A stretch of 64,000 nucleotides of DNA from Eledone cirrhosa (Eukaryota), in the NCBI GenBank assembly GCA_964016885.1, contig OZ024741.1, positions 119,846,001 to 119,910,000 of the forward strand, in the 5' to 3' direction. The notes under the pieces are model-generated. The model was not told where the DNA came from. It saw only the letters and a program-made list of their open reading frames with translations, and ran no database searches. Shown in pieces: positions 19,888 to 60,442 of this stretch. The translations under genes were made by a program, and so were the position numbers. How positions within the stretch are numbered: position 1 is the first letter of the stretch; each line of letters opens with the position of its first letter.

Positions 19888-22800
19888 GGTTATTTCAGTG
19901 CCTGGACTGTATGCCTGCCTCTCCCATTGCTGCGGAACAACAACAACAACAAAAACTGAAGATTGTGTCTTCTTCTACCATTGTTCCTTAACAACAACAA
20001 CAAAAACCGACCGTCAATACGGAGTTTGAGGAAATACGGCAAAAGAATTCCGCTTTAAGCCGAGAAATAGCGGAAATAAAATCAAGCGTTCGTGTAGAAC
20101 CCCACAATGAGGGATCTTACCGGAGTGCCTTGTTAAAAAATCTCTGTGTACCTTATGTTGAACCTAAACGCATTGAGAATGCCACTGAATCTGCAAACCA
20201 CGAAGTGATTTCCATTGGTGTACCAGAAGACATAGTTGATCTTCAGGCATTTGCTGCCAGTTCATCCCGCAAAGGGTGCTCTACGACTTGGCCGACCAGG
20301 CCCGAAACCCAGGCTAAATAGACTGTCGTTTTCAAACTCAACTGAGGCGCGTTCATACCTTGTAGCCTCTGATAAAGCTAGGCGTGAAAGTCAGATTGCT
20401 TTCCGAACACGCCCTGGTCTTCCACCTGATGTCCGCCCAAAGTTGCGTGTTGCAGCTTCCTTAAACCGCAGCTCGGCAGAACATGAAAGCTTCAGCCTAC
20501 GAGATGATGGGCAGATATGGAAGTTTGTTAAGGTTGGCGAAACATGGAAAAGAGACACCAGCTGGTCTGAAAATACTGTACCCACAACAACTGACAATAA
20601 AGAAACTGAAAAATCTCTGGGAAACTAAATCAGTACAACCTGCCATCCCCTGCACATAATCATAGACTGGAATCAAGGTACAAATTGTTGTCCTTGAATG
20701 CACGTAGTCTATGCAATAAGATTAATCTTTTTGACTCCTACGTCAAAAGTATCAACCCTGACTTCATTACAGTCACGGAAACTTGGGCACATCCCTTACT
20801 CTGTGATGGGGTTTTCAGCATGACTGGCTACAACCTATTTCGTAAAGACCGCATTAATCGTCGTGGTGGTGGTGTAATGGTCTACGTTCGGTCAAATCTG
20901 TCGGCAATTCCTTGTGTTGATTTGAACCAATCACAGCAGGAAGTTTTTTTCTGCGATATACGTATGACCATGTCAACACTGCTACTTGGAATCGTTTACG
21001 TCCCCCAAATTACCATTAGGACACTCAACTTTGTGATATCCTCAGAGCTGCTGCCAGGAAGACAGCCACTTACATTTTCATTGCAGGAGACTTCAATCAC
21101 TCTGAGATTGACTGAGAAACCTTTCGTGGCCGCCAAGTGCAAATGACTTCCTTGAGCTAGTGCTGGACTCGAGTTGGTCCCAAGTGGTCACCTCCCCAAC
21201 AAGAAGTGACAACACTTTGGACCTACTCTTCACCACTACTCCTGAAACGGTCATTAGTGTTACTGCTGAGGAACCTTTAGGTGACTCTGATCATGCTATG
21301 GTCATTGCCAATCTATCCCTCATGGGCAGTAACAAGAACCACAACCATCTCCAAACTGCTCACTTTGACTGGAATAAAGCAGACTGGAACTTACTGCACC
21401 GAGTTGCAACGGCCAAACTGGCTTGAGTTCTACGACTCTGGAGATGTCAACACTGTACTCCAGAACATCCTGAGCTCAATATGGACAGCATGTGCAGCAT
21501 CGGTGCCACGTAAGCGGAAAAAACATCCCAAAAGTGCAATTTGGGAGACTGCAGCAGTCCGTCTTGCCAGAAAAGAACGGCGCAATGCTGAACGTGAGTA
21601 CAAACTTCACAAATCAGACAATTAATAGGAAGAGGCGAAATAGATCGTCCAACCACCTCAAACAGGTGACAAAAAAGGCAGTGCTTCAATTTGAGCAGCG
21701 CATAGCAACCAGCCCTGACAGTAAGGTGTTCTGGAAGTATGTTCACTCAAAGCAGAGGCCTCACTCTCCAGTTGGTCCTCTTCGCAATCCCCACACAAGC
21801 CAGGTTACTGACGACCCCAAGGAATGCGCAGAGCTCATTGCTGAATGCTATGCAGGCATTTTCACTATTGAAGACCAGAGTGTACCATCTCCACCACCTA
21901 TGACATCGGACTCTATTACAACCATGGAATTTACACCTGCAATGCTGCGACGTCACCTAAAAAATAAACGCAACCATGCCTCTCCTGGTCTTGATGGTGT
22001 TACGTACCTGCTTTTTAAACGTGGTGGGTACTTCCTTCTGCACCAGTTATCACGCTTCTTCCAATACTGTCTGACAACAGTGCTACTCCAGAACAGTGGA
22101 AAACTGCCAGTGTCATTCCTCTGTTCAAAAAAGGTGACCGCACACCACCTGTGAACTATCGTCCAGTCAGTCTTACTAGTTGCATTGCCAAACTGATGGA
22201 ATCCTGTGTCAGAGAAACACTTTGGAACTTCTGGAGCTCTCACAGTCTTATCCGGCCCTCGCAATTTGGATTTATCACCAACTCCAGCTGCTGTGATCAA
22301 CTTATAGAGTTTCTTGAGGACATCACCCGGATCACTGATGGCGGCTCATGGGTGGATGTTGTTTACCTTGACTTTGCGAAAGCCTTCAATTCTGTGCCAC
22401 ACAAAAGGTTTATGGCAAAACTTTCTGCAATGGGTATGAAGGATGATCTTTTTAACTGGTTGAAGTCCTTCATTCTCAGTCGAAGAGAGGTAGTCACGGT
22501 TCTGGGACAGCATTCTTCACCATATGAGATGTTATCTGGTGTACCACAGGGATCTGTTCTTGGCCCCCTTTTGTTTGTGGCATATATTAATGACATAGAT
22601 GCCAACTTAAAGAATGCCACGGTACTAAAGTACGCAGATGACATCAAGCTGTACCTTGAGATAAAAAGGACAGATCCTGAACACTATGGATCTTGCTTGC
22701 AGCCTGACCTGGACACAATGCAACAATGGATCTCAGACTGGCAACTCAAGCTAGCTGTGGACAAGTTCACCACCATGCATTTTGGGAGTAAAAACCCAGC

Positions 22801-23582
22801 GTCCACATACTCCCTCCACAGTACTAATATCAAGAAGTCTTCTTGTGAACGTGACCTGGGCATTACGGTCAGCAGCGATTTGCGTTGGACGAAGCACGTC
22901 TCTAAAATTGTCAAGAGGGCCGAGGGTGTCTTAGCATCACTCAGCAAGACCTTTGTCAGCCGCTCTCCAGATATCTATTTAAGGCTGTACATGGCTATGG
23001 TGCGGCCACACTTAGAATTTGCATCACCAGTCTGGAACCCCTATCTTGCTCAGAACATTGACCGCCTGAAAACTGTTCAGAGACGTGCAACCAAGCGAAT
23101 ACCCTCCATCAGGCATCTACCATACTCTGAGCGCCTTGATTCCCTGGGCATGGATACATTGAAGCTCCGACGCCTGGCAACTGACTTGGTAAACGCCCAC
23201 AAAATTGTTAACCATCTTGGCAACAAAAACCCTGAGTACCTTTTTGATTTCCATGTGTCTAACACACGTGGACATGCCCACAAAGTCAGAAAACAGCACA
23301 GTTCCCATGACTTTCGGAAACATTTTTTCACGCTCAGAGTTGCTGAAGTATGGAACAAACTACCTGCATCAGTTGTTAGCTGTCGAGACACTGCATCCTT
23401 TAAGGCCTCCATGCTTCCCGAGATCCGCCAACAGTACAGCTAATGTTCCCCTCCATACACATACACACGTGTATATCATAACTCATACACTATTCACTTC
23501 CCTGACATTTGTGTATCATTCTATGTACTATACATACACCTTTGACGAGTTGTAGTGCACCTGAGCACTTTACACAATAATT

Positions 23583-23584
<2 letters not shown>
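19888..23584 (+). mobile_element. Decayed CR1-clade LINE, probably 5'-truncated, ending in an (ATT)n tail
   Basis: ORF1-like remnant (~19.9-20.63 kb), broken APE+RT ORF2, 3'UTR ending ...CACCTGAGCACTTTACACAATAATTTC followed by (ATT)n. Confidence 0.88.
20685..23443 (+). pseudogene. CR1-type ORF2 (APE endonuclease + reverse transcriptase), several frameshifts/stops
   Basis: LNARSL, TETW, RGGGV, LDL, SDH (APE); NYRPVSLT, DFAKAF, GVPQGSVLGP, YADD (RT); CR1-like C-terminus TRGH...FF..RV...WNKLP. Split over at least five ORF pieces. Confidence 0.9.
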
Positions 23585-23614
<30 letters not shown>

Positions 23615-23626
23615 GTTATTGTTATT

Positions 23627-26600
23627 CCTTGAATCTCAGTCATTGATGTTGGTTAACTGGAAAGTCCGTTGGATTGAATATCAAGCCACTACCTGCAGCC
23701 TCAGATATTCAGGACGTATCGGAGGGTTCTTGCTGTTCCAAGCAAGCATGCCTTTTGAAGCGTTCCAAAAAGCGTGAAGGGGCCGATTTTCTTTAACCAT
23801 CCCTGGAAACTTTTGGAGATAGTCCCCAGTGCGCCTATGACAATCGGGATCACTTTGACTTCATGGCAGTTCCAAATCCTTTTCACCTCCCACTTTAGGT
23901 CCTGGTATCGGTTAATTTTCTCCCTCTCCTTCTCTTGCACTCTCGTGTCGAACGGGCAGGCCACATCCACAATCAGGCACGATCTTTTTTCTTTGTCCAC
24001 AACCACCAGGTCAGGTCTATTGTGTTCCAGTTTTTTGTCCGTCTGTATCCTAAAATCCCACAGCACCTTCACCTGATTGTTCTCCATCACCGCCTCTGGC
24101 CTATGCTCATACCATTTCTCAGAATGTGGTAGATTGTTTACTTTGCACAGGTGCCAGTGGATCACCCGGCCCATCACATCGTGTCTCCAGCCCTTATAGT
24201 GGGTCTGGGCTAGGTGTTTACACTCGGACACAATGTGAGCCACAGTCTCCTCTCTCCACAGATCCTGCACAGTGGGCTGGCCTCCTCCTTGTAGATATGG
24301 TGCTTCAACCACTTCGTTTTGAGGGCCTGCTCCTGCGCAGCCATTAGCATTCCTTCTGTAGCCTTTTTGAGGTCTCCTCTTCTCAACCAGTTCCATGTCT
24401 GTGGATCTCTAAATTCAGTTTTCTCAAAGAAGGTACTATGAAGGGGTTTTCCCTTAAGGCTGCTCTTCCTCCTTGATGTTATTTCCTCCCTGGACATCCC
24501 CTGGCCTACTGTCCCCTCCTTCAGTACAGCTCTGAGCATTGGCTCCTTACTATAGGTCACGTATTTGTATAGGTTGTTTTTCTCCATCTGAACACAGTCC
24601 TCTATGCTGATAAGACCTCTTCCACCCTCAGATCTCCTTAGGTAGAGTCTATCGACATCACTCCTCTTGTGGAACATGTTGTAGATAGTCAATAGCTTCC
24701 CAGTCTTCCTATCCATTTCTTTCTGTTCAGCAACATTCCATCTCAGAATTCCCGCACTGTACCTAATAATAGACACAGCTCGGGAATTTACTGCGCTTAT
24801 GGCATTTCTGCTGTTCAGATGTGACTTCAATACGCTCCTTACTCTCCGAATGTATTCAGTTCTTAATAATTCCTTCATTTTTTTGTTCTTTATGCCATCA
24901 GCCTCCAGAACGCCCAAATACTTGTATCCTTCCTCAGAGTCAATTTCCTTTATCATCTCACCTGTTGGTATCTGGATCCCGTTACTTCTGCTCAACCTAC
25001 CCCTCTTCATCACAATGACTCTACATTTACCAATACCAAACTGCATACATATATCACTGCTGAAAATACGGACAGTGTCAACAAGCACATCCAACTCCTT
25101 CTCACTTTTCCCGAAGAGCTTAAGACCGTCCATGAAGAGGAGGTGATTGATGGTAAGCTCTCCCCTTCCCAACTTGTATCCTGCTCTCACTTTTCGCAGC
25201 ATAATGGTCAAGGGCATCAGGGCAAGGACAAACAACAGAGGGGACAGGCTATCTCCCTGGAAGATACCTCTCTTGATCTTCACGCTTCCCAAGGATACTC
25301 CAGTTGATGTCAACTCTGTCTCCCAGGACCCCATACTCCTGCCTAGCAACTGTCTGATGTTATCCGCCACCCTGAAGATCTCCAGGCTTTTGGTGATCCA
25401 GGAATGAGGCACCATGTCAAATGCCTTTCTGTAGTCTATCCATCCCATGGCAAGATCAGTGTGTCTCCTCCTGCAATTCCCCATTACCATCTTATCAATA
25501 AGCAACTGGTCCTTTGTACCACGTGACTTCTTTCGGCATCCTTTCTGTTCGTCCGGTAACAAGTTGTTTGTGTGGAGGTGATGGTAGATTTCCTCAGACA
25601 CAATGCTCGTCAACAGTTTCCACATTACGGGCAGACATGTGATAGGTCTATAGTTGGTAGCATCATTACCCTTGATTCGGTCTTTCATTATCAGAACTGT
25701 GGTACCTTTTGTCAACCACTCTGGCACCTCACCCGACACCAAGCAGTCATTGAACATGGCCGTCAGCTTCGGGTGGAGGGATGTTAGATGTTTAATCCAA
25801 TACCCCTGCACACCGTCTGGGCCTGGCGATTTCCAGTTGGTTAGTTTTTTGGCTTGTCCCTTAAGAGTTTCAACTGTGATACTCAAATCAGTCTGTTGCT
25901 GTGCCTGCTCACCGATCTCCCTCTGTACTGTCTCAATCCACCCTGCCTGGGCATTGTGTCTAACATCCTGCTCCCATATTCCTCTCCAGAATGTTTTAGT
26001 TTGCTCCGCCCCAGGGATCAAGTCGTTGCCTCTTTCTTTGCCCTCAAGCTGTCCAAACAGCATCTTCTGGTTGTTGTCGAACATGCGGTTCTGTTTATAC
26101 TGACTGACTCTGTTCTCGTATCGCCTGATTTTTGCACTCTTTGCTACAATGCGTTGCTTCAATTCCTCTATGATAATATTTAGCTTTTTACTCCTAGTTT
26201 TGTATTTTATTTCCAGTCTATTTTTAGTGCCTATGTTTTTTAGTGTCCCATTCAGTAGTGACTCAAGCTTTCCTATGTCATTTCTCATTTCCCCGATTTG
26301 CCCACTCAGTCGCTTCTTCCACCACGGCTCTGCTCTTTCTTGTCTGTTGTTTCCTCTCGCTTTTATACCAAGTAGTTTCCTCACCGTATTTGCTGTTGCT
26401 CTGAGGATATTGATGCACTGGTGAAGGCTCCTCGCCTCAAGGTATGGGATGACTTTGTTTACCTTAGCTGTTGTTTCTTTTAACTTTTTCCTGTCTACAA
26501 ATCTTAGGTTCATAGGTCTCCCACTATCATTGTTCAATTCATCTACCACTAGATTTAGGATGTCAACCGAATCTTGTCCTAGCCCGTCAGCATTCATCTC

Positions 26601-27318
26601 CTCAGTGGCCGTATCTCTGTTCCAGGTATTATTTATCTCAGTATTCAGATCATTGTCTGCTTCGGGTGGTTCCTCCGTTCTCAGGACCTCCTCACCTTCA
26701 TTTCCCACCGGCTCGCTTGTCTGGCATACTACACCCGCCATCTCCAAGCCATTCTCTCTGCTCAGTTCCTCCAGTTCCAGCTCGCTTATCCACCCATTAG
26801 TTCTTATTACCCGAGCCTGCCCGGCCAAATTTTGTTCATCTAATTTAAATAAACCAATCTCGTTCCAGATGTTATGCATCCGTCTCCTGTAGCCCCTCTC
26901 CTTGGGGTTACTTTTCAGGTAGCATTGCATAACAGTTCTATTCAATTCTTTCGTCCAGTTGGTTCTGGCCCCTTTCCTTCTTCTCCTTCCTCCAACATCA
27001 GCAGTATTTGGTTGACAGTCAGGTTCCTGCTGCTGAGCCAGGGGGCACCTGTTGGGTGAGAGTCTGTCACATGACGTTCTAGTCTCCATTTCACCGTTAT
27101 TCGAACTGTTTATGTTCGATATTTAAACACTCTTATCGAGGATTGGCGAATGTATGTTTACATAGCCATCTGTGGGTCCGCCATCCCACTTGGCCCTTGT
27201 GTGGCATTATCACCACGCTGTATACGAACACACATAAACAAACAAACACACAGGCAGAAAGGGCCCCAGAAATGAATAAGCATAAGTTTCATTGTAATGT
27301 AGTGTTCGAATGTCTGAC
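23627..27318 (-). mobile_element. R4/Dong-like RLE non-LTR retrotransposon family A, copy 1 (short 5' end, defective)
   Basis: Single long ORF with RT + CCHC + PD-(D/E)xK domains, flanked by (TAA)n. (TAA)n targeting is the established behaviour of Dong elements (R4 clade). Confidence 0.9.
23701..27089 (-). pseudogene. R4-A RT/RLE polyprotein, copy 1: 4-bp deletion frameshift in TC run at ~24250 and catalytic FMDD changed to FMDG
   Basis: Comparison with the intact 1130-aa copy at 50312-53704. Confidence 0.9.
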
Positions 27319-27353
<35 letters not shown>

Positions 27354-27365
27354 GTTATTGTTATT

Positions 27366-30300
27366 CCTTGAATCTCAGTCATTCATGTTGGTTAACTGGA
27401 AAGTCCGTTGGATTGAATATCAAGCCACTACCTGCAGCCTCAGATATTCAGGACGTATCGGAGGGTTCTTGCTGTTCCAAGCAAGCATGCCTTTTGAAGC
27501 GTTCCAAAAAGCATGAAGGGGCCGATTTTCTTTAACCATCCCTGGAAACCTTTGGAGATAGTCCCCAGTGCGCCTATGACAATCGGGATCACTTTGACTT
27601 CATGGCAGTTCCAAATCCTTTTCACCTCCCACTTTAGGTCCTGGTATCGGTTAATTTTCTTCCTCTCCTTCTCTTGCACTCTCGTGTCGAACGGGCAGGC
27701 CACATCCACAATCAGGCACGATCTTTTTTCTTTGTCCATAACCACCAGGTCAGGTCTATTGTGTTCCAGTTTTTTGTCCGTCTGTATCCTAAAATCCCAC
27801 AGCACCTTCACCTGACTGTTCTCCATCACCGCCTCTGGCCTATGCTCATACCATTTCTTAGAATGTGGTAGATTGTTTACTTTGCACAGGTGCCAGTGGA
27901 TCACCCTGCCCATCACATCGTGTCTCCAGCCCTTATAGTGGGTCTGGGCTAGGTGTTTACACTCGGACACAATGTGAGCCACAGTCTCCTCTCTCTCTCC
28001 ACAGATCCTGCACAGTGGGCTAGCCTCCTCCTTGTAGATATGGTGCTTCAACCACTTCGTTTTGAGGGCCTGCTCCTGCGCAGCCATTAGCATTCCTTCT
28101 GTAGCCTTTTTGAGGTCTCCTCTTCTCAACCAGTTCCATGTCTGTGGATCTCTAAGTTCAGTTTTCTCAAAGAAGGTACTATGAAGGGATTTTCCCTTAA
28201 GGCTGCTCTTCCTCCTTGATGTTATTTCCTCCTTGGACATCCCCTGGCCTACTGTCCCCTCCTTCAGTACAGTTCTGAGCATTGGCTCCTTACTATAGGT
28301 CACGTATTTGTATAGGTTGTTTTTCTCCATCTGAACACAGTCCTCTATGCTGATAAGACCTCTTCCACCCTCAGATCTCCTTAGGTAGAGTCTATCGACA
28401 TCACTCCTCTTGTGGAACATGTTGTAGATAGTCAATAGCTTCCTAGTCTTCCTATCCATTTCTTTTTGTTCAGCAACATTCCATCTCAGAATTCCCGCAC
28501 TGTACCTAATAATAGACACAGCTCGGGAATTTACTGCGCTTATGGCATTTCTGCTGTTCAGATGTGACTTCAATACGCTCCTTACTCTCCGAATGTATTC
28601 AGTTCTTAACAATTCCTTCATTTTTTTGTTCTTTATGCCATCAGCCTCCAGAACGCCCAAATACTTGTATCCTTCCTCAGAGTCAATTTCCTTTATCATC
28701 TCACCTGTTGGTATCTGGATCCCGTTACTTCTGCTCAACCTACCCCTCTTCATCACAATGACTCCACATTTACCAATACCAAACTGCATACATATATCAC
28801 TGCTGAAAATACGGACAGTGTCAACAAGCACATCCAACTCCTTCTCACTTTTCCCGAAGAGCTTAAGATCGTCCATGAAGAGGAGGTGATTGATGGTAAG
28901 CTCTCCCCTTCCCAACTTGTATCCTGCTCTCACTTTTCGCAGCATAATGGTCAAGGGCATCAGGGCAAGGACAAACAACAGAGGGGACAGGCTATCTCCC
29001 TGGAAGATACCTCTCTTGATCTTCACGCTTCCCAAGGATACTCCAGTTGATGTCAACTCTGTCTCCCAGGACCCCATACTCCTGCCCAGCAACTGTCTGA
29101 TGTTATCTGCCACCCTGAAGACCTCCAGGCTTTTGGTGATCCAGGAATGAGGCACCATGTCAAATGCCTTTCTGTAGTCTATCCATCCCATGGCAAGATC
29201 AGTGTGTCTCCTCCTGCAATTCCCCATTACCATCTTATCAATAAGCAACTGGTCCTTTGTACCACGTGACTTCTTTCGGCATCCTTTCTGTTCGTCCGGT
29301 AACAAGTTGTTTGTGTGGAGGTGATGGTAGATTTCCTCAGACACAATGCTCGTCAACAGTTTCCACATTACGGGCAGACATGTGATAGGTCTATAGTTGG
29401 TAACATCATTACCCTTGATTCGGTCTTTCATTATCAGAACTGTGGTACCTTTTGTCAACCACTCTGGCACCTCACCCGACACCAAGCAGTCATTGAACAT
29501 GGCCGTCAGCTTCGGGTGGAGGGATGTTAAATGTTTAATCCAATACCCCTGCACACCATCTGGGCCTGGTGATTTCCAGTTGGTTAGTTTTTTGGCTTGC
29601 CCCTTAAGAGTTTCAACTGTGATACTCAAATCAGTCTGTTGTTGTGCCTTCTCACCGATCTCCCTCTGTACTGTCTCAATCCACCCTGCCTGGGCATTGT
29701 GTCTAACATCCTGCTCCCATATTCCTCTCCAGAATGTTTTAGCTTGTTCCGCCCCAGGGATCAAGTCGTTGCCTCTTTCTTTCCCCTCAAGCTGTCCAAA
29801 CAGCATCTTCTGGTTGTTGTCGAACATGCGGTTCTGTTTATACTGACTGACTCTGTTCTCGTATCGCCTGATTTTGGCACTCTTTGCTACAATGCGTTGC
29901 TTCAATTCCTCTATGATAATATTTAGCTTTTTACTCCTAGTTTTGTATTTTATTTCCAGTCTATTTTTAGTGCCTATGTTTTTTAGTGTCCCATTCAGTA
30001 GTGACTCAAGCTTTCCTATGTCATTTCTCATTTCCCCGATTTGCCCACTCAGTCGCTTCTTTCACCACGGCTCTGCTCTTTCTTGTCTGTTGTTTCCTCT
30101 CGCTTTTATACCAAGTAGTTTCCTCACCGTATTTGCTGTTGCTTTGAGGATATTGTTGCACTGGTGAAGACTCCTCGCCTCAAGGTATGGGATGACTTTG
30201 TTTACCTTAGCTGTTGTTTCTTTTAACTTTTTCCTGTCTACAAATCTTAGGTTCATAGGTCTCCCACTATCATTGTTCAATTCATCTACCACTAGATTTA

Positions 30301-31912: not shown

Positions 31913-32001
<89 letters not shown>

Positions 32002-32002
<1 letters not shown>

Positions 32003-32928
32003 CTTGAATCTCAGTCATTGATGTTAGTTAACTGGAAAGTCCGTTGGAATGAATATCAAGCCACTACCTGCAGCCTCAGATATTCAGGACGTATCGGAGG
32101 GTTCTTGCTGTTCCCAGCAAGCATGCCTTTTGAAGCGTTCCAAAAAACGTGAAGGGGCCGATTTTCTTTAACCATCCCTGGAAACTTTTGGAGATAGTCC
32201 CCAGTGCGCCTATGACAATCGGGATCACTTTGACTTCATGGCAGTTCCAAATCCTTTTTACCACCCACTTTAAGTCCTGGTATCGGTTAATTTTCTCCCT
32301 CTCCTTCTCTTGCACTCTCGTGTCGAATGGGCAGGCCACATCCACAATCAGACACGATCTTTTTTCTTTGTCCACAACCACCAGGTCAGGTCTATTGTGT
32401 TTCAGTTTCTTGTCCGTCTGTATCCTAAAATCCCACAGCACCTTCACCTGATCGTTCTCCATCACCGCCTCTGGCTTATGCTCATACCATTTCTCAGAAT
32501 GTGGTAAATTGTTTACTTTGCACAGGTGCCAGTGGATCACCCTGCCCATCACATCATGTCTCCAGCCCTTATAGTGGGTCTGGGCTAGGTGTTTACACTC
32601 GGATACAATGTGAGCCACAGTCTCCTCTCTCTCTTCACAGATCCTGCACAGTGGGCTAGCCTCCTCCTTGTAAATATGGTGTTTCAACCACTTCGTTTTG
32701 AGGCCTGCTCCTGCGCAGCCATTAACATTCCTTCTGTAGCCTTTTTAAGGTCTCCTCTTTTCAACCAGTTCCATGTCTGTGGATCTCTAAATTCAGTTTT
32801 CTCAAAGAAGGTACTATGAAGGGATTTTTCCTGAAGGCTGCTCTTTCTCCTTGATGTTATTTCCTCCTTGGACATCCCCTGGCCTATTGTCGCCTCCTTC
32901 AGTACAGTTCTGAGCATTGGCTCCTTAC

Positions 32929-32931
<3 letters not shown>
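32002..32931 (-). mobile_element. R4-A copy 3, 5'-truncated (RLE domain + 3'UTR), more diverged, frameshift at ~32700
   Basis: ORFs 32076..32687 and 32684..32917 match the R4-A C-terminus. Confidence 0.9.
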
Positions 32932-32971
<40 letters not shown>

Positions 32972-33180
32972 GGCGACCTACGTAGTAAATCGTATCATCG
33001 TGAGCTCCGCAAAGGTTTGTTATTTCCGTTTGTTAAAAATTGTCATTTATGGAAAATTTTAATGTTAACTGTTTATAAGCGCACATACATTGTTTTCCGA
33101 AAAGGACACCCAAAAAGATTGGGGCCTTGTGCCCAAAATTTAAACTTTTATTATTATCAAAAAAAATTTCTTTGAAAAAA

Positions 33181-35220: not shown

Positions 35221-35254
35221 GTGGTCTTTCCCATCTTTTCCACTCCTTTTCAAC

Positions 35255-41246: not shown

Positions 41247-41281
41247 GTGGTCTTTCCCATCTTTTCCACTCTATTTTAAAC

Positions 41282-44701: not shown

Positions 44702-44983
44702 ATTAAAGGTGGAAAACTGGGAGAGGGCACTTGCCTTGGTGGTCAGGGTCATTGTGGCTTTTACTGGGCTTTCTCCACAAATGTCCCTCCGAAGTCTCCC
44801 CCCTATTGGGGAATTTTTCATTGTTATTTTTTGTTACATCCTCTGTTTTTGTTTTTTACACGCAGAAATGCCCATTTGTACCGTCCTGTATTGTCCTGCA
44901 CTGTCCTTAATGTCTACTTTATGTAAACCCTTGTGGTTAATAAAGAAATCATTATTATTATTATTATTATTATTGTTGTTATT

Positions 44984-46068
44984 CCTTGAATCTCAGTCAT
45001 TGATGTTGGTTAACTGGAAAGTCCGTTGGATTGAATATCAAGCCACTACCTGCAGCCTCAGATATTCAGGACGTATCGGAGGGTTCTTGCTGTTCCAAGC
45101 AAGCATGCCTTTTGAAGCGTTCCAAAAAGCGTGAAGGGGCCGATTTTCTTTAACCATCCCTGGAAACTTTTGGAGATAGTCCCCAGTGCGCCTATGACAA
45201 TCGGGATCACTTTGACTTCATGGCAGTTCCAAATCCTTTTCACCTCCCACTTTAGGTCCTGGTATCGGTTAATTTTCTCCCTCTCCTTCTCTTGCACTCT
45301 CGTGTCGAACGGGCAGGCCACATCCACAATCAGACACGATCTTTTTTCTTTGTCCACAACCACCAGGTCAGGTCTATTGTGTTCCAGTTTTTTGTCCGTC
45401 TGTATCCTAAAATCCCACAGCACCTTCACCTGATTGTTCTCCATCACCGCCTCTGGCCTATGCTCATACCATTTCTCAGAATTTGGTAAATTGTTTACTT
45501 TGCACAGGTGCCAGTGGATCACCCTGCCCATCACATTGTGTCTCCAGCCCTTATAGTGGGTCTGGGCTAGGTGTTTACACTCGGACACAATGTGAGCCAC
45601 AGTCTCCTCTCTCTCTCCACAGATCCTGCACAGTGGGCTAGCCTCCTCCTTGTAGATATGGTGCTTCAACCACTTCGTTTTGAGGGCCTGCTCCTGCGCA
45701 GCCATTAGCATTCCTTCTGTAGCCTTTTTGAGGTCTCCTCTTCTCAACCAGTTCCATGTCTGTGGATCTCTAAATTCAGTTTTCTCAAAGAAGGTACTAT
45801 GAAGGGATTTTCCCTTAAGGCTGCTCTTCCTCCTTGATGTTATTTCCTCCTTGGACATCCCCTGGCCTACTGTCCCCTCCTTCAGTACAGTTCTGAGCAT
45901 TGGCTCCTTACTATAGGTCACGTATTTGTATAGGTTGTTTTTCTCCATCTGAACACAGTCCTCTATGCTGATAAGACCTCTTCCACCCTCAGATCTCCTT
46001 AGGTAGAGTCTATCGACATCACTCCTCTTGTGGAACATGTTGTAGATAGTCAATAGCTTCCTAGTCTT
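44984..46068 (-). mobile_element. R4-A copy 4, 5'-truncated (331-aa C-terminal ORF 45058..46053)
   Basis: Near-identical to the 3' 1.1 kb of the other copies. Confidence 0.92.
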
Positions 46069-46086
46069 ATTATTATTATTATTATT

Positions 46087-49000
46087 TGCATTTATCTTGA
46101 TTTATGTTTATACGAGTTATCACCAAGTCACAACCAATGACCTCAAGAGACAACAAGGTCCGCCATGTTCAAGAAAGAACACACATATTCACACATGCAT
46201 CCTTAGTGTTTAGACTTGTGATGTACTTATATTGACAGGATCTTCCTTAGTATATGGGCAGTTCCCATTAGTACTATCTTTTGTATTTCTCCTATACGCG
46301 GGTTTCCTGGGATTTGCGATAAGTAGTCGTTAGACCCCTTAGGTATCATTCCCAGAGCGCCTACAACCACTGGTATTGTTTTAGTTCTCAATTTCCACAT
46401 TTTTCCAATTTCTATCTCCAGGTCCTTATACTTGCTCAATTTTTCAAATGTTTTTATAGATACATTCTTGTCTATTGGAACAGACATATCAATTAGCAGG
46501 CATACCCTCCTTTGAAAGTCCTTCAATATTATATCAGGTCTATTTGCATCTATTTTTCGGTCTGTTTGGATGCTAAAGTTCCACAAGATTGAGATGTGAT
46601 CTTTTTCAAGTATGGGAGGTGGTTGATGCTCCCACCAATTCTTTTGATGGGGCAGGTCAAAATGCTTGCACATTATCCAATGTATGTATTGTGCAGCTCT
46701 GTCATGCCTGTTTAGGTATTCGGTTGGAGCTATAGGACTGCACATTGAAATTATATGGTCAATGGTCTCTGGTTGTTTTTTGCATACACGGCATAATGGG
46801 CTGCACCCATTTTTTATTATGTTGGCTTGGTAATTTTTTGTTGGCAGACACTGATCTTGTGCGGATATAATCAGTCCTTCAGTCTCCGATTTCAGTCCAG
46901 AGGATGCCAACCACTGATGGGTTAAAGTTTTGTCAACATCAGGATTGTTAGCTCGCTCTGGGTATTTTCCATACAGAGGCTTTTCTTGCCATTTCTTAGC
47001 CAGTTTCTGTAGCAGTTCTTTCTTTGCAGTTACTTTTACCTGCTTTGCTTTTTCTGTGTTTTCCATTTCAGCAGTAAATGGGACTTCTGAAATTTGTAGT
47101 CCATTACTGTATCTTTGTGCATCTTTTGTAATGGAATATGATCTTTTGGTGCTTTCGTGTTTCAAAACGAGTTTGATCATCCAATCATGTGATTCCCTTA
47201 GATATGTGGATAATCCAATTGTTGCAGTTTTCAACGCAATGTCTAACTGGATTAACCCACGTCCTCCTTCTTTCCTAGGGAGATATATTCTATCTATGTC
47301 TGCCTTAGGGTGATGCATTCTGTGCATGGTTAAGAATTTTCGGATTTTTGTATCGAGCCTACGGATCTCTGTGCTTGACCAGTTGATGACATTGTAACTG
47401 TAGGTTACTACTGGTATGGCAAGCGTGTTTATGGCATCGATCCTATTCCTTGCATTCAATTCCGTTCTTAAGATTGCTCTGACTCTGCGGTAACATTCCT
47501 TCCTTATCCTTTCCCTCATTGTCGAGTGCTTGATTCCGTCTCCTTCACAAACACCTAGATATTTGTAAGTTTGTTCTTGATCAAGCTCTCTTATCACGTT
47601 CCCCCGATCAAGATTAATGTCTGAACTCTTCAGCAGCTTTCCTCTGGTGAACGTTGCTTTGGCGCATTTATCCAGTCCAAACTCCATTTTAATGTCATCA
47701 CTGAACTGCTTCACAGTGGATAATAGCCCTTGCAATTGTTCATCATTTTTTGCAAATAGTTTCAGGTCATCCATGTAGAACAGGTGATTAATGGTTTTGT
47801 CATAGACTCTATATCCATGTTTTGTTTCATTGAGCATTTTACTTAATGGTATAAGTGCGATGCAGAATAAAAGCGGTGATAAAGAGTCAACCTGAAAAAT
47901 TCCACAATTAATGTTAACTTCTCCAGCTTCCAGTGATTTTGTTTCACTATTCAAAAGGAGTGTCGTTCTCCATGTCCTCATACTGAATGACAAAAACCTC
48001 CTGATAACGGGGGATATTTTGAAAATCTCTAAACATTTTTCAATCCAACTGTGTGGCAAACTATCAAATGCTTTTTTATAATCTATCCAAGCAATCGATA
48101 GATTTTTGTGTCTATTATGACAATCTTCCAGTATCATTTTGTTAACCAGAAGCTGATCCTTACAGCCATATGAGCCTCGTTTACACCCTTTCTGCTCAAT
48201 GGGAAATAGGTCATTTGTTATCAGGTGGTCATATGTGTATTCAGTTAGGACTGATGTTAAAATTTTATACATTGTGGTCAAGCAGGTTATCGGTCTGTAA
48301 TTTTTGGGATTGTTTGTCTCATCATTCTTCGGTAGCAGGAATGTAATGCCGTTAACTAGCCATGATGGTATCTTTTCTGGCTCCTTAACTATTTCATTGT
48401 AAAGTTGGGCTAACAGCTCATGAGACTCTGTGAAGGCATTTATCCAAAAGTTTTGTATTTTGTCTTTTCCTGGGGATTTCCATTTGCTGGTTTTTCTTAG
48501 AGCCAAGCGCAGCTGTTCAACTGTTATATTTTCCCATGTTTGTTCTTCAAGGTGAGCTGTTTCTTTCATTTGTCTGTCTATCCATGGGGCATGTATGTTA
48601 TGAACTTTTTCTTCGGCCCAGATCTTTTCCCAGAATTCTTGCACTTCCTCCTTGGGTGGTATTGATTTAGCAGTTATTGTTGACTTACCAATTTTTCTGT
48701 AGAAGTTTCTTTGGTTGTTTTTGAACATATTATTGTCCTTATAGAATCTAGATCGTTTTTCAAAGCGCCTTATACGAGCAGCTTTGGCCGACACTTTTTG
48801 CTTGATTGTTTCTATCAGCATGTCTATGTCACATGTTGATCTTATACTGTACTTTTTTTTCAATTTTCTAAGTTTAGTTTGTTTAACATGTTCACCTACT
48901 TTATAGTTTGTTAAAATTTCTATGTCAGATCGGAGAAGGTTTATTTGGCGATTGATGTTATCTTGCCAAGTAGATTTCTTGTGGGAATTCCTTTGTTTTT

Positions 49001-50188
49001 TCATCTTCACTCCACATAAGTGAGTGGTGACTTTAGCCGATGCATAATAGAGATGATTTAAGTCAGTAATGCTTAGTTTGTTTGTGATGATAATGTTTTT
49101 GAGAATTATGTTAGTCTTGTGTATTATCTTTTGGTTCTGTTTGGAGTTCTGGATCTTAGGGAGGGTGTCTCGTTCCCCCATGTCAGATTCTTTCATTTTC
49201 ATCCATTCGATCATAATTTCATCCTTCAAGTTGGCAAGTTCATTCTCATTCATTTCTTTATCATTTACGATCTCATTATTTTCATTTGGAGTTTCATCCT
49301 GAGCATGCACTCCCTCCACTTTTTCGCTCCTTTCTTTAATTTGTTCTGTTGCCAGTGATTCCGCCCCAACTCTGGGATTCGAAGTGTTACAGTTTACCTC
49401 GGTTTCACTGACGCATGCTTCATTTTCCCTTCGCTGACTTTGTGCTACTAGCTTGATCTGATCAATTTCTATATCAGTTAGTAACTTTTTTCTTACAATA
49501 TTTCTTCGTATATTGGCTAGTTTGTTACTGTCAATATAGCCTCTGTTTTCGGGATGTTTCTTTTTCCAGTTGATATATGTTTGCTCTGTATTCGATGTAT
49601 TTGATGGGTAGTACATGGCAGTGTAGAAAGCCTCAAGGACTTCTTTATTATCTTCCCTTGACCATTTTTCTCTCTTTTTCTTTGGATTTCTTGGTGGTGA
49701 GCATGGAGGGCCAACAGTAGGAGTATTCCGGTTATGGGAGGTCTCCAGCTCCGAAGTGATGGGAAGGTTTGAACCATTAGCTGATTTTTCGACCCCAGTC
49801 TGGTTCCTCTCTGAGGGACGCGGCCCTTTTTTACCCGGGTGACGGCCGATCCGGTATGAGATTTCATCATTAGACATCTACTTTATTTTGTCGCGTTTTA
49901 TCCTTATCCGCCAAGGGGTAATCTTTTCGTGTTACCACTTCTAGAACGAGTGTCAACCAAGACTAGAGGGGTCGTTCTCCCCTAGAGACATGGCTATTCC
50001 CCGCCGGCCGCCATCCCGGTATTTCTTGGTCACGGGGTTTTCTTTTTGTTGTTTTTTTTAAATTGTTATTATCATGAGTGGTTCCTTAATGTGAGCATTG
50101 CGTGGCTTAAGAATGAAATTATTAATAATTGTCTCCACTCCAGGCCAGCAATCACCCAGTGCATTACAATAATATAATATACTTTTTG

Positions 50189-50190
<2 letters not shown>
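46087..50190 (-). mobile_element. R4/Dong-like family B element (distinct lineage), apparently full length; 5' boundary uncertain (~50065 or ~50190)
   Basis: Single 1216-aa ORF homologous to but far from family A; flanked by (TAA)n. Confidence 0.88.
46227..49877 (-). CDS. R4-B RT/RLE polyprotein, 1216 aa, uninterrupted
   Basis: NYRPITCL, EQKGC, WIDYKKAFD, GIFQVDSLSP (canonical G replaced by V), FYMDD, CRVC..HIISMC, RHD, RPD..IDMSVP..K..KY. Confidence 0.92.
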   Translation of the reverse strand: MSNDEISYRIGRHPGKKGPRPSERNQTGVEKSANGSNLPITSELETSHNRNTPTVGPPCSPPRNPKKKREKWSREDNKEVLEAFYTAMYYPSNTSNTEQTYINWKKKHPENRGYIDSNKLANIRRNIVRKKLLTDIEIDQIKLVAQSQRRENEACVSETEVNCNTSNPRVGAESLATEQIKERSEKVEGVHAQDETPNENNEIVNDKEMNENELANLKDEIMIEWMKMKESDMGERDTLPKIQNSKQNQKIIHKTNIILKNIIITNKLSITDLNHLYYASAKVTTHLCGVKMKKQRNSHKKSTWQDNINRQINLLRSDIEILTNYKVGEHVKQTKLRKLKKKYSIRSTCDIDMLIETIKQKVSAKAARIRRFEKRSRFYKDNNMFKNNQRNFYRKIGKSTITAKSIPPKEEVQEFWEKIWAEEKVHNIHAPWIDRQMKETAHLEEQTWENITVEQLRLALRKTSKWKSPGKDKIQNFWINAFTESHELLAQLYNEIVKEPEKIPSWLVNGITFLLPKNDETNNPKNYRPITCLTTMYKILTSVLTEYTYDHLITNDLFPIEQKGCKRGSYGCKDQLLVNKMILEDCHNRHKNLSIAWIDYKKAFDSLPHSWIEKCLEIFKISPVIRRFLSFSMRTWRTTLLLNSETKSLEAGEVNINCGIFQVDSLSPLLFCIALIPLSKMLNETKHGYRVYDKTINHLFYMDDLKLFAKNDEQLQGLLSTVKQFSDDIKMEFGLDKCAKATFTRGKLLKSSDINLDRGNVIRELDQEQTYKYLGVCEGDGIKHSTMRERIRKECYRRVRAILRTELNARNRIDAINTLAIPVVTYSYNVINWSSTEIRRLDTKIRKFLTMHRMHHPKADIDRIYLPRKEGGRGLIQLDIALKTATIGLSTYLRESHDWMIKLVLKHESTKRSYSITKDAQRYSNGLQISEVPFTAEMENTEKAKQVKVTAKKELLQKLAKKWQEKPLYGKYPERANNPDVDKTLTHQWLASSGLKSETEGLIISAQDQCLPTKNYQANIIKNGCSPLCRVCKKQPETIDHIISMCSPIAPTEYLNRHDRAAQYIHWIMCKHFDLPHQKNWWEHQPPPILEKDHISILWNFSIQTDRKIDANRPDIILKDFQRRVCLLIDMSVPIDKNVSIKTFEKLSKYKDLEIEIGKMWKLRTKTIPVVVGALGMIPKGSNDYLSQIPGNPRIGEIQKIVLMGTAHILRKILSI

Positions 50191-50225
<35 letters not shown>

Positions 50226-50311
50226 GTTATTGTTATTCCTTGAATCTCAGTCATTGATGTTGGTTAACTGGAAAGTCCGTTGGATTGAATATCAAGCCAC
50301 TACCTGCAGCC

Positions 50312-53300
50312 TCAGATATTCAGGACGTATCGGAGGGTTCTTGCCGTTCCAAGCAAGCATGCCTTTTGAAGCGTTCCAAAAAGCGCGAAGGGGCCGATTT
50401 TCTTTAACCATCCCTGGAAACCTTTGGAGATAGTCCCCAGTGCGCCTATGACAATCGGGATCACTTTGACTTCATGGCAGTTCCAAATCCTTTTCACCTC
50501 CCACTTTAGGTCCTGGTATCGGTTAATTTTCTCCCTCTCCTTCTCTTGCACTCTCGTGTCGAACGGGCAGGCCACATCCACAATCAGGCACGATCTTTTT
50601 TCTTTGTCCACAACCACCAGGTCAGGTCTATTGTGTTCCAGTTTTTTGTCCGTCTGTATCCTAAAATCCCACAGCACCTTCAGCTGACTGTTCTCCATCA
50701 CCGCCTCTGGCCTATGCTCATACCATTTCTCAGAATGTGGTAGATTGTTTACTTTGCACAGGTGCCAGTGGATCACCCTGCCCATCACATCGTGTCTCCA
50801 GCCCTTATAGTGGGTCTGGGCTAGGTGTTTACACTCGGACACAATGTGAGCCACAGTCTCCTCTCTCTCTCCACAGATCCTGCACAGTGGGCTAGCCTCC
50901 TCCTTGTAGATATGGTGCTTCAACCACTTCGTTTTGAGGGCCTGCTCCTGCGCAGCCATTAGCATTCCTTCTGTAGCCTTTTTGAGGTCTCCTCTTCTCA
51001 ACCAGTTCCATGTCTGTGGATCTCTAAATTCAGTTTTCTCAAAGAAGGTACTATGAAGGGATTTTCCCTTAAGGCTGCTCTTCCTCCTTGATGTTATTTC
51101 CTCCTTGGATATCCCCTGGCCTACTGTCCCCTCCTTCAGTACAGCTCTGAGCATTGGCTCCTTACTATAGGTCACGTATTTGTATAGGTTGTTTTTCTCC
51201 ATCTGAACACAGTCCTCTATGCTGATAAGACCTCTTCCACCCTCAGATCTCCTTAGGTAGAGTCTATCGACATCACTCCTCTTGTGGAACATGTTGTAGA
51301 TAGTCAATAGCTTCCTAGTCTTCCTATCCATTTCTTTTTGTTCAGCAACATTCCATCTCAAAATTCCCGCACTGTACCTAATAATAGACACAGCTCGGGA
51401 ATTTACTGCGCTTTTGGCATTTCTGCTGTTCAGATGTGACTTCAATACGCTCCTTACTCTCCGAATGTATTCAGTTCTTAACAATTCCTTCATTTTTTTG
51501 TTCTTTATGCCATCAGCCTCCAGAACGCCCAAATACTTGTATCCTTCCTCAGAGTCAATTTCCTTTATCATCTCACCTGTTGGTATCTGGATCCCGTTAC
51601 TTCTGCTCAACCTACCCCTCCTCATCACAATGACTCCACATTTACCAATACCAAACTGCATACATATATCACTGCTGAAAATACGGACAGTGTCAACAAG
51701 CACATCCAACTCCTTCTCACTTTTCCCGAAGAGCTTAAGATCGTCCATGAAGAGGAGGTGATTGATGGTAAGCACTCCCCTTCCCAACTTGTATCCTGCT
51801 CTCACTTTTCGCAGCATAATGGTCAAGGGCATCAGGGCAAGGACAAACAACAGAGGGGACAGGCTATCTCCCTGGAAGATACCTCTCTTGATCTTCACGC
51901 TTCCCAAGGATACTCCAGTTGATGTCAACTCTGTCTCCCAGGACCCCATACTCCTGCCCAGCAACTGTCTGATGTTATCTGCCACCCTGAAGATCTCCAG
52001 GCTTTTGGTGATCCAGGAATGAGGCACCATGTCAAATGCCTTTCTGTAGTCTATCCATCCCATGGCAAGATCAGTGTGTCTCCTCCTGCAATTCCCCATT
52101 ACCATCTTATCAATAAGCAACTGGTCCTTTGTACCACGTGACTTCTTTCGGCATCCTTTCTGTTCGTCCGGCAACAAGTTGTTTGTGTGGAGGTGATGGT
52201 AGATTTCCTCAGACACAATGCTCGTCAACAGTTTCCACATTACGGGCAGACATGTGATAGGTCTATAGTTGGTAACATCATTACCCCTGATTCGGTCTTT
52301 CATTATCAGAACTGTGGTACCTTTTGTCAACCACTCTGGCACCTCACCCGACACCAAGCAGTCATTGAACATGGCCGTCAGCTTCGGGTGGAGGGATGTT
52401 AAATGTTTAATCCAATACCCCTGCACACCATCTGGGCCTGGTGATTTCCAGTTGGTTAGTTTTTTGGCTTGCCCCTTAAGAGTTTCAACTGTGATACTCA
52501 AATCAGTCTGTTGCTGTGCCTGCTCACCGATCTCCCTCTGTACTGTCTCAATCCACCCTGCCTGGGCATTGTGTCTAACATCCTGCTCCCATATTCCTCT
52601 CCAGAATGTTTTAGCTTGTTCCGCCCCAGGGATCAAGTCGTTGCCTCTTTCTTTCCCCTCAAGCTGTCCAAACAGCATCTTCTGGTTGTTGTCGAACATG
52701 CGGTTCTGTTTATACTGACTGACTCTGTTCTCGTATCGCCTGATTTTGGCACTCTTTGCTACAATGCGTTGCTTCAATTCCTCTATGATAATATTTAGCT
52801 TTTTACTCCTAGTTTTGTATTTTATTTCCAGTCTATTTTTAGTGCCTATGTTTTTTAGTGTCCCATTCAGTAGTGACTCAAGCTTTCCTATGTCATTTCT
52901 CATTTCCCCGATTTGCCCACTCAGTCGCTTCTTCCACCACGGCTCTGCTCTTTCTTGTCTGTTGTTTCCTCTCGCTTTTATACCAAGTAGTTTCCTCACC
53001 ATATTTGCTGTTGCTTTGAGGATATTGTTGCACTGGTGAAGACTCCTCGCCTCAAGGTATGGGATGACTTTGTTTACCTTAGCTGTTGTTTCTTTTAACT
53101 TTTTCCTGTCTACAAATCTTAGGTTCATAGGTCTCCCACTATCATTGTTCAACTCATCTACCACTAAATTTAGGATGTCAACCGAATCTTGTCCTAGCCC
53201 GTCAGCATTCATCTCCTCAGTGGGCGTATCTCTGTTCCAGGTATTATTTATCTCAGTATTCAGATCATTGTCTGCTTCGGGTGGTTCCTCCGTTCTCAGG

Positions 53301-53704
53301 ACCTCCTCACCTTCATTTCCCACCGGCTCGCTTGTCTGGCATACTACACCCGCCATCTCCAAGCCATTCTCTCTGCTCAGTTCCTCCAGTTCCAGCTCGC
53401 TTATCCACCCATTAGTTCTTATTACCCGAGCCTGCCCGGCCAATTTTTGTTCATCTAATTTAAATAAACCAATCTCGTTCCAGATGTTATGCATCCGTCT
53501 CCTGTAGCCCCTCTCCTTGGGGTTACTTTTCAGGTAGCATTGCATAACAGTTCTATTCAATTCTTTCGTCCAGTTGGTTCTGGCCCCTTTCCTTCTTCTT
53601 CTTCCTCCAACATCAGCAGTATTTGGTTGACAGTCAGGTTCCTGCTGCTGAGCCAGGGGGCACCTGTTGGGTGAGAGTCTGTCACATGACGTTCTAGTCT
53701 CCAT
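50312..53704 (-). CDS. Intact R4-A RT/RLE polyprotein, 1130 aa
   Basis: KSPGPDG, NYRPITCL, GIFQGDSLSP, FMDD, CRICG..HIVSEC, RHD, RPDL..VDVACP..K..RY all intact. Confidence 0.94.
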   Translation of the reverse strand: METRTSCDRLSPNRCPLAQQQEPDCQPNTADVGGRRRRKGARTNWTKELNRTVMQCYLKSNPKERGYRRRMHNIWNEIGLFKLDEQKLAGQARVIRTNGWISELELEELSRENGLEMAGVVCQTSEPVGNEGEEVLRTEEPPEADNDLNTEINNTWNRDTPTEEMNADGLGQDSVDILNLVVDELNNDSGRPMNLRFVDRKKLKETTAKVNKVIPYLEARSLHQCNNILKATANMVRKLLGIKARGNNRQERAEPWWKKRLSGQIGEMRNDIGKLESLLNGTLKNIGTKNRLEIKYKTRSKKLNIIIEELKQRIVAKSAKIRRYENRVSQYKQNRMFDNNQKMLFGQLEGKERGNDLIPGAEQAKTFWRGIWEQDVRHNAQAGWIETVQREIGEQAQQQTDLSITVETLKGQAKKLTNWKSPGPDGVQGYWIKHLTSLHPKLTAMFNDCLVSGEVPEWLTKGTTVLIMKDRIRGNDVTNYRPITCLPVMWKLLTSIVSEEIYHHLHTNNLLPDEQKGCRKKSRGTKDQLLIDKMVMGNCRRRHTDLAMGWIDYRKAFDMVPHSWITKSLEIFRVADNIRQLLGRSMGSWETELTSTGVSLGSVKIKRGIFQGDSLSPLLFVLALMPLTIMLRKVRAGYKLGRGVLTINHLLFMDDLKLFGKSEKELDVLVDTVRIFSSDICMQFGIGKCGVIVMRRGRLSRSNGIQIPTGEMIKEIDSEEGYKYLGVLEADGIKNKKMKELLRTEYIRRVRSVLKSHLNSRNAKSAVNSRAVSIIRYSAGILRWNVAEQKEMDRKTRKLLTIYNMFHKRSDVDRLYLRRSEGGRGLISIEDCVQMEKNNLYKYVTYSKEPMLRAVLKEGTVGQGISKEEITSRRKSSLKGKSLHSTFFEKTEFRDPQTWNWLRRGDLKKATEGMLMAAQEQALKTKWLKHHIYKEEASPLCRICGEREETVAHIVSECKHLAQTHYKGWRHDVMGRVIHWHLCKVNNLPHSEKWYEHRPEAVMENSQLKVLWDFRIQTDKKLEHNRPDLVVVDKEKRSCLIVDVACPFDTRVQEKEREKINRYQDLKWEVKRIWNCHEVKVIPIVIGALGTISKGFQGWLKKIGPFALFGTLQKACLLGTARTLRYVLNI

Positions 53705-54273
53705 TTCACCGTTATTCGAACTGTTTATGTTCGATATTTAAACACTCTTATCGAGGATTGGCGAATGTATGTTTACATAGCCATCTGTGGATCCGCCATC
53801 CCACTTGGCCCTTGTGTGGCATTATCACCACGCTGTATACGGACACACATAAAGAAACAAACACACGGGCAGAAAGGGCCCCAAAAATGAATAAGCATAA
53901 GTTTCATTGTAATGTAGTATTCGAATGTCTGACTTAGTTTTTGTTTTTTAAGTTTTACTTTTTCCCCCCTCTTCTCTGTCCGTCCGCCTGCTTCTCTCTT
54001 CATTCTTATTTTCTTTACGTTTTTGGGGTTTCTTTTTTTGTTTTTGTTTTTCTCTGTTTTTCTCGTTTTTTACTGTTGTTGCTGTGCTGCTTTTGTTGTT
54101 TGTTTTTTCTTTTTTCTTTTGAGTCTATCTATATATTTTGATGCCTTCCTCTTTGTTAGTAGTAGGAATTCTATAATGTGGAAGTGGTAGCCAGCAGAAA
54201 CTGGCGGCGTTGGCGATACTGAGACAGTGGTGGTGGTGATGTCGATACCGAGGCAGTGGTGGCGGTGATGCGA

Positions 54274-54921
54274 CCGTATTACTGTAGTGATGGTGCTGTA
54301 GCGGTGGCAGCAGCAGTGAAGGAGTCAGGGGGTGGTGGCGGCGGTGATGGGATAGTGGTGGTAATGATGGCCGTAGTGAGCGGTGGCGGTGAAGGTGAAA
54401 ATGCTGTTGTGTTTAGTGTACACAGATGATGGGGTGGGTGGTGTATCTAGTTTCTGGTGTTGGTGAGTTTCGCTGTCCTATATAGTGTAGCCAGAGGAGA
54501 GGAGGGGGGGGGGGGTTCTTCTTCTTCCATTTATAGCCATTTTATTTTTTTTTTGGATATACAGTGTACAATACAAAGTTGAATATTTGAATATTTGAGC
54601 CGTATTACTGTAGTGATGGTGCTGTAGCGGTGGCAGCAGCAGTGAAGGAGTCAAGGGGTGGTGGCGGCGGTGATGGGATAGTGGTGGTAATGATGGCCGT
54701 AGTGAGCGGTGGCGGTGAAGGTGAAAATGCTGTTGTGTTTAGTGTACACAGATGATGGGGTGGGTGGTGTATCTAGTTTCTGGTGTTGGTGAGTTTAGCT
54801 GTCCTATATAGTGTAGCCAGAGGAGAGGAGGGGGGGGGGGGTTCTTCTTCTTCCATTTATAGCCATTTTTTTTTTTAGATATACAGTGTACAATACAAAG
54901 TTGAATATTTGAATATTTGAG
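54274..54921. repeat. Tandem duplication of ~326 bp (54274-54599 / 54600-54921) with CC microhomology
   Basis: Segment is single in copy 2 (31424-31746) and doubled here. Confidence 0.9.
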
Positions 54922-55089
54922 CCTTATAACAATATATTTTGGGTCCGAATTTTTTTGGGGCTCAAGCCGGGTGCTTTACGTAGCATTTGTACTAAGAGTT
55001 GTTATTTCACAAATGATTTAAATATGTTAAAAATTCAAAACTTACGGGAGCGATTTCATGACCTCCGTCACCTCGTGCGTCTTCTTCCC

Positions 55090-55168
<79 letters not shown>

Positions 55169-55170
<2 letters not shown>

Positions 55171-60348: not shown

Positions 60349-60437
<89 letters not shown>

Positions 60438-60442
<5 letters not shown>

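Follow-up and report, generated by a model that had tools for sequence, protein, structure and literature searches.

A 64,000-nt window of the Eledone cirrhosa genome (NCBI GenBank assembly GCA_964016885.1, contig OZ024741.1, positions 119,846,001 to 119,910,000 of the forward strand) contains a 35-kb stack of long interspersed nuclear elements (LINEs) separated by runs of the microsatellite (TTA)n; coordinates below are those of the window unless another locus is named. The left flank (1-19887) is an AT-rich satellite with a 26-bp unit and a 20-bp variant, which breaks off at a CR1-like LINE and reappears only at 55166-55228 as the right flank. Because it resumes for just these last ~60 bp, the stack lies at the edge of the satellite array. 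The resumption in phase claimed in the original prediction holds for the 20-bp variant unit, since the 31-mer formed by the joined satellite ends has a single occurrence in the left array, and among continuations of the 12-mer before the break the 10-mer found here ranks third in frequency (17 of 184). Between the flanks, a CR1 with an (ATT)n tail is followed by eight (TTA)n-bounded elements, as had been described, and nine tracts totalling 139 triplets. The eight LINEs stand side by side and are not nested, so that the earlier image of a Russian doll has to be given up; the statement that none lies within another's body is correct for the LINEs and fails for a 69-nt short interspersed element (SINE) inside one of them. 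The two clades named at the time are present, with restriction-like (RLE) and apurinic/apyrimidinic-like (APE) endonucleases respectively, and comprise three families: A with five copies, C with one and B with two.

The CR1-like element (19888-23584, plus strand), the probable seed, has APE and reverse transcriptase (RT) domains (Pfam PF03372 and PF00078) broken into three frames. Its (ATT)n tail and the variant tail of the first A copy make up tract 1 (23585-23626, 14 triplets; this and the following tracts are given for the plus strand). A1, a Dong/R4-like RLE element (23627-27318, minus), is 5'-truncated with one frameshift and is followed by tract 2 (27319-27365, 15.7 triplets), by A2 (27366-31912, minus), which has an intact 5' end and one stop, and by tract 3 (31913-32001, 29.7 triplets). 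A3 (32002-32924, minus), also 5'-truncated, is the most diverged A copy, with 27-35 mismatches per 900 nt relative to its neighbours. Tract 4 (32925-32971, 15.7 triplets) leads to B1 (32972-38912, plus), a Tx1-like APE element whose two open reading frames (ORFs) include a frameshifted ORF2. Beyond tract 5 (38913-38927, 5 triplets) lies B2 (38928-44951, plus), likewise Tx1-like, with a different 5' end and ORF1 and with both frames open (ORF1, 39095-40954; ORF2, 41087-44701). Tract 6 (44952-44983, 10.7 triplets), the 5'-truncated A4 (44984-46066, minus) and tract 7 (46067-46084, 6 triplets) precede C (46085-50190, minus), a second Dong/R4-like RLE family whose ORF of 1216 aa (46227-49877) is open. 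Tract 8 (50191-50237, 15.7 triplets) is followed by A5 (50238-55089, minus), a full-length copy with an open ORF of 1141 aa (50312-53737), and the stack closes with tract 9 (55090-55168, 26.3 triplets), which would be the distal remnant of the seed tract.

Families A and C share 36% protein identity and a common architecture, in which a single ORF carries RT, a CCHC zinc knuckle and a C-terminal PD..D..K nuclease. A Pfam search found no APE domain in either, and among solved structures their best relatives are R2 proteins. The motifs of A5 (CRIC..H..SEC, RPD, D.A.P.D and K..RY..L) have equivalents in C, which has QVD at the position of A's QGD within an open frame. The A copies of the stack are mutually 96-99% alike, and the family carries its own TAACAA variant tail, common to copies on different chromosomes; A5 has a 326-bp tandem duplication in its 5' untranslated region, and the C copy of the stack lacks ~730 nt of 5' end present in other copies. 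Full-length C copies start with 360-490 nt that are 75-86% like the 5' end of A (compare 54600-55089), a common module that could possibly serve as a promoter or ribozyme; an Rfam search of 19000-56000 with E up to 0.1, without a dedicated structure search, gave no 5' ribozyme match and only satellite noise. Family B has an ORF2 with APE, RT and zf-RVT domains (Pfam) and an ORF1 with a CCHC knuckle. L1 ORF2p is the best relative of its ORF2 among solved structures (E 1.7e-49), and there is a short 66% match to a protein labelled Octopus sinensis. The ORF2 regions of B1 and B2 are 95.7% identical in DNA and their ORF1 proteins 42% identical. The two copies thus have ORF2 and the 3' end in common and differ in their 5' ends (32972-35172 and 38928-41197); both types are full-length and common elsewhere, mosaics exist, and the pattern resembles an exchange of the 5'/ORF1 part within a Tx1-like family. 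Homologue searches with A/C and B returned unnamed clusters, with no named R4/Dong or Tx1 sequence among the matches, and the R4/Dong and Tx1 labels used here are putative ones that rest on architecture and target, not on a tree. Exact 3' ends of the three families number at least 13,600 genome-wide (4,524 of A, 1,097 of C and 8,044 of B type), which represents a real share of the genome.

These families insert into one microsatellite with fixed and opposite polarity, A and C on its TAA strand and B on its TTA strand. In identity-ranked samples of 29 copies per family, the 3' end runs into a tract in 28 A, 28 B and all 29 C copies. As a 3' tract could be the element's own tail, B was tested by its 5' ends, and 1,546 of 1,687 B1 5' ends fall exactly after (TTA)3TT. 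In 108 long regions, B 3' ends are followed by TTA 31 times and by TAA 0 times. Furthermore, 26 B 5' ends lie after the flank of the internal tract of a dispersed repeat described below as repeat X, one of them after a flank copied by an A insertion. B is truly TTA-specific, and the proposal of a target common to RLE and APE families is upheld by the 3' ends and the B1 5' ends together. Older B-like subfamilies (70-80% identical to B1/B2) and older A-like copies (79-91%) occupy the same tracts in the same polarity, so that the targeting is of long standing. TTA runs of at least six units number 87,594 genome-wide.

The step by which such stacks would grow can be measured at repeat X, 793 copies of which have an internal TTA tract and poly-T. 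Four of 30 copies sampled in order of position carry one of these LINEs; with these and one degenerate copy excluded, the 25 empty tracts measure 7-18 triplets (median 14). Filled sites were scored in 16 cases of 30 examined among 36 X-to-A sites, and in 9 cases of 20 examined among 26 X-to-B sites; multi-element sites, sites whose far flank was not visible and a few irregular ones were set aside. The two tracts around a single A sum to 23-34 triplets (median 26.5, n=16) and those around a single B to 18-33 (median 21, n=9). Relative to the paralogous empty sites, the repeat content rises by ~12 triplets with an A insertion and by ~7 with a B insertion, and the tract on the 5' side of A alone equals the length of an empty tract. 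Since the filled-site sums exceed the empty sites, each insertion seems to turn one tract into two of comparable quality, and the forecast that every insertion regenerates two targets is borne out. At four X sites, the unique flank itself is present on both sides of the element; the identical blocks measure 26, 28 and 85 nt around A and ~45-51 nt around B1. Just before one A 3' junction there is also a 14-nt tandem duplication of X's unique flank, perhaps the trace of an aborted insertion.

Stacking of these elements is widespread. In identity-ranked samples of 29 copies each, another member adjoins at least 24 of the A copies, 19 of the B and 22 of the C, or at least 65 of 87 in total, as counted by a script that misses ~2. 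When position-ordered A sites were walked over 10-40 kb, 14 of 18 proved to be multi-element stacks of one polarity, and the notion that the locus under study is exceptional must be abandoned. Where the walked stacks end, the neighbour is the tail of another LINE or of a SINE, an internal tract of another repeat or, in one case, an older CR1. One stack (C1:37.10-37.185 Mb) comprises 14 tracts and ~14 recognisable elements over ~55 kb, possibly 80 kb or more, as same-polarity elements recur 5 kb on. In a census of 89 position-ordered tracts (90 were retrieved and one duplicate was removed), 22 of the 36 tracts with a member on one side have one on the opposite side too, versus 4 of 53 in the remaining tracts. 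If tracts were chosen uniformly, the two rates should not differ, and stacking therefore goes beyond chance.

The reading that best accommodates these results, to which we assign a probability of roughly 0.78, is that the window holds one of many stacks in which the RLE families A and C and the Tx1-like B share a microsatellite through serial insertions, each likely duplicating much of its target. For this site, a CR1-like copy would have inserted 60 bp from the satellite edge and brought an (ATT)n tail; the tail is shown for its family, and divergence suggests the order. A, C and B would then have targeted the TAA/TTA tracts with the fixed, opposite polarity seen in the counts. Filled sites have about twice the repeat of empty ones, probably because each insertion duplicates its target; the likely source of the gain is a long target-site duplication (26-85 nt where it extends into unique flank), together with the short TAACAA tail that A itself would bring. 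Longer tracts are filled more often in a comparison of two seed classes, and occupation would therefore improve a site as a target and let it extend in both directions, a proposed positive feedback.

Several points weigh against this reading. The filled-site counts at repeat X were made by hand (±1) at single-element sites with both flanks visible only, the duplication extends into unique flank at just 4 sites, and within pure repeat a duplication is indistinguishable from slippage by reverse transcriptase. The 139 triplets of the window exceed the ~100 expected from eight average gains plus the seed. The census covers the first 15 Mb of one chromosome, with several tracts per stack, and was classed by hand. 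Its tracts have a median of 14 triplets between members as against 9 when unoccupied, and 14 of 16 CR1 tails of 18 or more units are free of these LINEs at the far end. No empty allele of the locus was seen in public runs, three of which, from one sample, contain at least half of the sequence words searched; the pieces skip the repeats and none spans the junction. As tracts between members are only moderately longer and most long CR1 tails are free, length alone may not explain the clustering. An occupancy beside a member ~8 times that of other flanks, at such a small difference in length and with most very long CR1 tails empty, could indicate that TAA targeting is real and clustering arises mainly from context, by survival in or steering to silenced or gene-poor regions, with target regeneration a minor contributor. 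We consider this unlikely, as the gain of repeat per insertion is measured at paralogous sites and the clustering occurs at the scale of single tracts with one polarity, which regional context alone does not predict.

Serial insertion also has to be set against a local origin of the copies. The 96-99% likeness among the A copies could reflect tandem duplication or unequal crossing-over, and MoTeR arrays can expand through recombination (PMC7367193). Multi-element read-through transcripts are conceivable as well, since the RLE elements seem to have no obvious stop signal before the tract. Neighbouring A copies, however, differ by 8-35 per 900 nt and copies elsewhere by 1-12; A1, A3 and A4 have three different truncation points; tract lengths all differ too; and the A1/A2 and A4/C truncation junctions each occur once in the genome. 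The closer relatives elsewhere, the differing truncations and the two unique junctions argue for independent insertions, leaving a local or co-mobilised origin highly improbable. For the two junctions tested (A1/A2 and A4/C), local duplication and co-mobilisation were rejected. Even less credence is given to the idea that repeats were collapsed or mis-joined in the assembly. The pieces of public runs, which skip repeats, include no read or contig across a junction, an outcome that such an error would accommodate; yet the copies all differ from one another in sequence and truncation, a strict polarity is kept, the satellite is in phase across the block, and stacks of this architecture, with target duplications, are found at many loci.

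The origin of the first tract can be traced with some confidence. The CR1-like element is 39% identical over 453 aa to a duck RT protein, and avian LINEs are CR1; it has APE and RT domains, a CR1-type C-terminus and a 3' tail of short tandem repeats. An exact pattern finds 2,794 tails of its family genome-wide. Among 29 other copies, 28 end in an ATT run and 1 in an ATT/ATC variant, with tails of 3-15 units (median ~6, by eye). The 19.9 kb of satellite contains no TTA or TAA run of three or more units. The closest relative of the CR1 is 97.25% identical (3' end), as compared with 98.25-100% for the eight elements, and by this criterion the centrally placed A3 and B1 look older than A1, A4, A5 and C. 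Dating used nearest relatives among the best 30-40 hits, and as these come from limited samples the order of insertion is likely, not proven. An ATT-ending family, a satellite without a TTA run and the greatest divergence in the CR1 all point to its tail as the origin of the tract, and CR1 probably seeded this site. Here the original prediction is well supported, both in holding that a CR1 tail created the target and in expecting the CR1 to look oldest.

The further expectation of a genome-wide preference for CR1 tails is contradicted by the data. That CR1 tails are preferred landing pads and that CR1 drives the arrays might be argued from this site and from at least ten other A and eight B1 junctions that start at a CR1 tail, one of which reaches ~10 elements. 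A adjoins only 11 of 2,794 CR1 tails within 40 nt (0.39%), however, and B1 adjoins 8 within 60 nt; conversely, 11 of 4,524 A ends genome-wide adjoin CR1 (0.24%). Neither A, B nor C lies on any of the 29 sampled other CR1 copies, none of 58 sampled A and C 3' ends adjoins this CR1, nor does any in the A, B and C samples of 29 each, and none of 12 CR1-type tails in the tract census carries A, B or C. Nine of the ten other CR1-to-A sites hold a single A, with the one exception at ~10 elements; at 9 sites where a lone A split a CR1 tail, the two tracts total 19-33 triplets. Repeat X, with its longer tract, is occupied by A in 36 of 793 copies (4.5%), ~11 times more often per copy than CR1 tails, a comparison confounded by age and context. 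Only 96 CR1 tails reach 12 units and 16 reach 18. A driving role for CR1 is thus about as improbable as an assembly error. Any tract of enough length can seed a stack, and CR1 is an incidental and poor class of seed.

The 69-nt SINE mentioned above (34869-34937) is 5'-truncated and lies between 14-nt target duplications within B1 (34855-34951, plus); its insertion site is empty in 19 of 19 matches from other loci. The tRNA-like SINE is abundant, has ATT tails, prefers ATTA-like sites and resembles B at its 3' end (CCTTGTG...AGAAA.CA, then TTA), which suggests that it may be mobilised by B. It contributes tails as seeds. As a further TTA-specific member it was rejected, with 7 of 155 SINE 5' ends after three or more TTA. 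Elsewhere in the window, the satellite shows a higher-order periodicity in 1584-11075 (9.4-kb offset at 92.5%) and GC-richer inserts near 1-2, 7-8 and 10-11 kb, and 10741-11075 has an inverted match to 60354-60650 (72%). On the right, 60958-60969 is the (TTA)n-tailed 3' end of another repeat, an end that borders stacks elsewhere, and a fragment 68% like the 3' part of B ORF2 lies outside any TTA tract (62252-63206, minus).

Taken together, the main interest lies in the genome-wide system and the measured regeneration of its target, not in the locus or its CR1. The system provides a measurable mechanism for transposon hotspots, a proposed positive feedback via target duplication, that is testable with paralogous empty sites in a single assembly. 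A Tx1-like family specific for (TTA)n is added to those known, together with a case in which RLE and APE nucleases use one target on opposite strands, and the intact, young A5 and B2 are usable in target-specificity assays. A broader reading can be offered only tentatively. Unrelated RLE and APE clades might have converged on a dispersed microsatellite, split it by strand and used unusually long target duplications to build telomere-like arrays without telomeres, a form of niche construction between clades in which each insertion would supply improved landing sites to all the families. Thousands of stacks of 10-80 kb could then keep most young LINE activity off unique DNA and hide new insertions from short-read callers. 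For a Dong element of Octopus bimaculoides, a short-read caller detected hardly any non-reference insertions (PMC9115989). Few such calls are what even an active element would give if it inserted into existing stacks, which bears on estimates of activity in octopods.

The component parts of this system are known, and their closest counterparts are considered here. Dong elements of the R4 clade (Bombyx mori Dong, DongAg and DongBg) target a TAA microsatellite (PMC3812793). The recently active LINEs of Octopus vulgaris are headed by the three LINE classes seen in this stack, with Dong-R4 the most numerous of them (PMC13282606). A and C resemble Dong in their TAA target, single ORF, RT, CCHC knuckle and C-terminal PD..D..K nuclease. 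B. mori Dong self-cleaves (PMC3774820), whereas the 5' end here gave no Rfam ribozyme match. Multi-family stacks and long target duplications, found here, are absent from the Dong descriptions compared. Among Tx1 elements, Kibi, Koshi and crocodilian Tx1 target (TC)n, (TTC)n, (TTCC)n and (TTTC)n (PMC4494074). B is similar in its APE, RT and zf-RVT ORF2, its CCHC ORF1 and its insertion into a simple repeat; unlike these elements, it targets (TTA)n and shares that target with RLE elements. The literature covered, which did not extend to subscription papers, Repbase or supplements, described neither mixed RLE/APE (Dong/Tx1) stacks within a dispersed TAA microsatellite nor a Tx1 element specific for TTA, nor target duplications of such length. 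What we did not find described is the dispersed, cross-clade and self-feeding array.

Simple repeats are also shared between families at telomeres. TRAS1 and SART1 are both R1-clade APE elements. They enter the (TTAGG)n telomeres of Bombyx in opposite directions (PMC7265360) and so offer a parallel of two families in one simple repeat with opposed orientation; that system is telomeric, whereas the one described here uses a dispersed microsatellite (~88,000 runs of six or more units) and unrelated nucleases. In Magnaporthe, MoTeR arrays lie head-to-tail at telomeres, spaced by internalised telomere repeats (PMC7367193), and tandem SINEU-3 copies sandwich a target duplication (PMC4494074). Both share with the present stacks the spacing of tandem elements by target repeats or a duplication. 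That the targeting of multicopy sequences limits harm is an established idea (PMC4640811). MoTeR arrays differ in being telomeric and arising partly by break-induced recombination, while the stacks here are interstitial and built from independent insertions. TRAS/SART- and MoTeR-type arrays work alike; the stack of E. cirrhosa, with its (TAA)n target and its position at 119.8 Mb of a 416-Mb contig, is not a member of their class.

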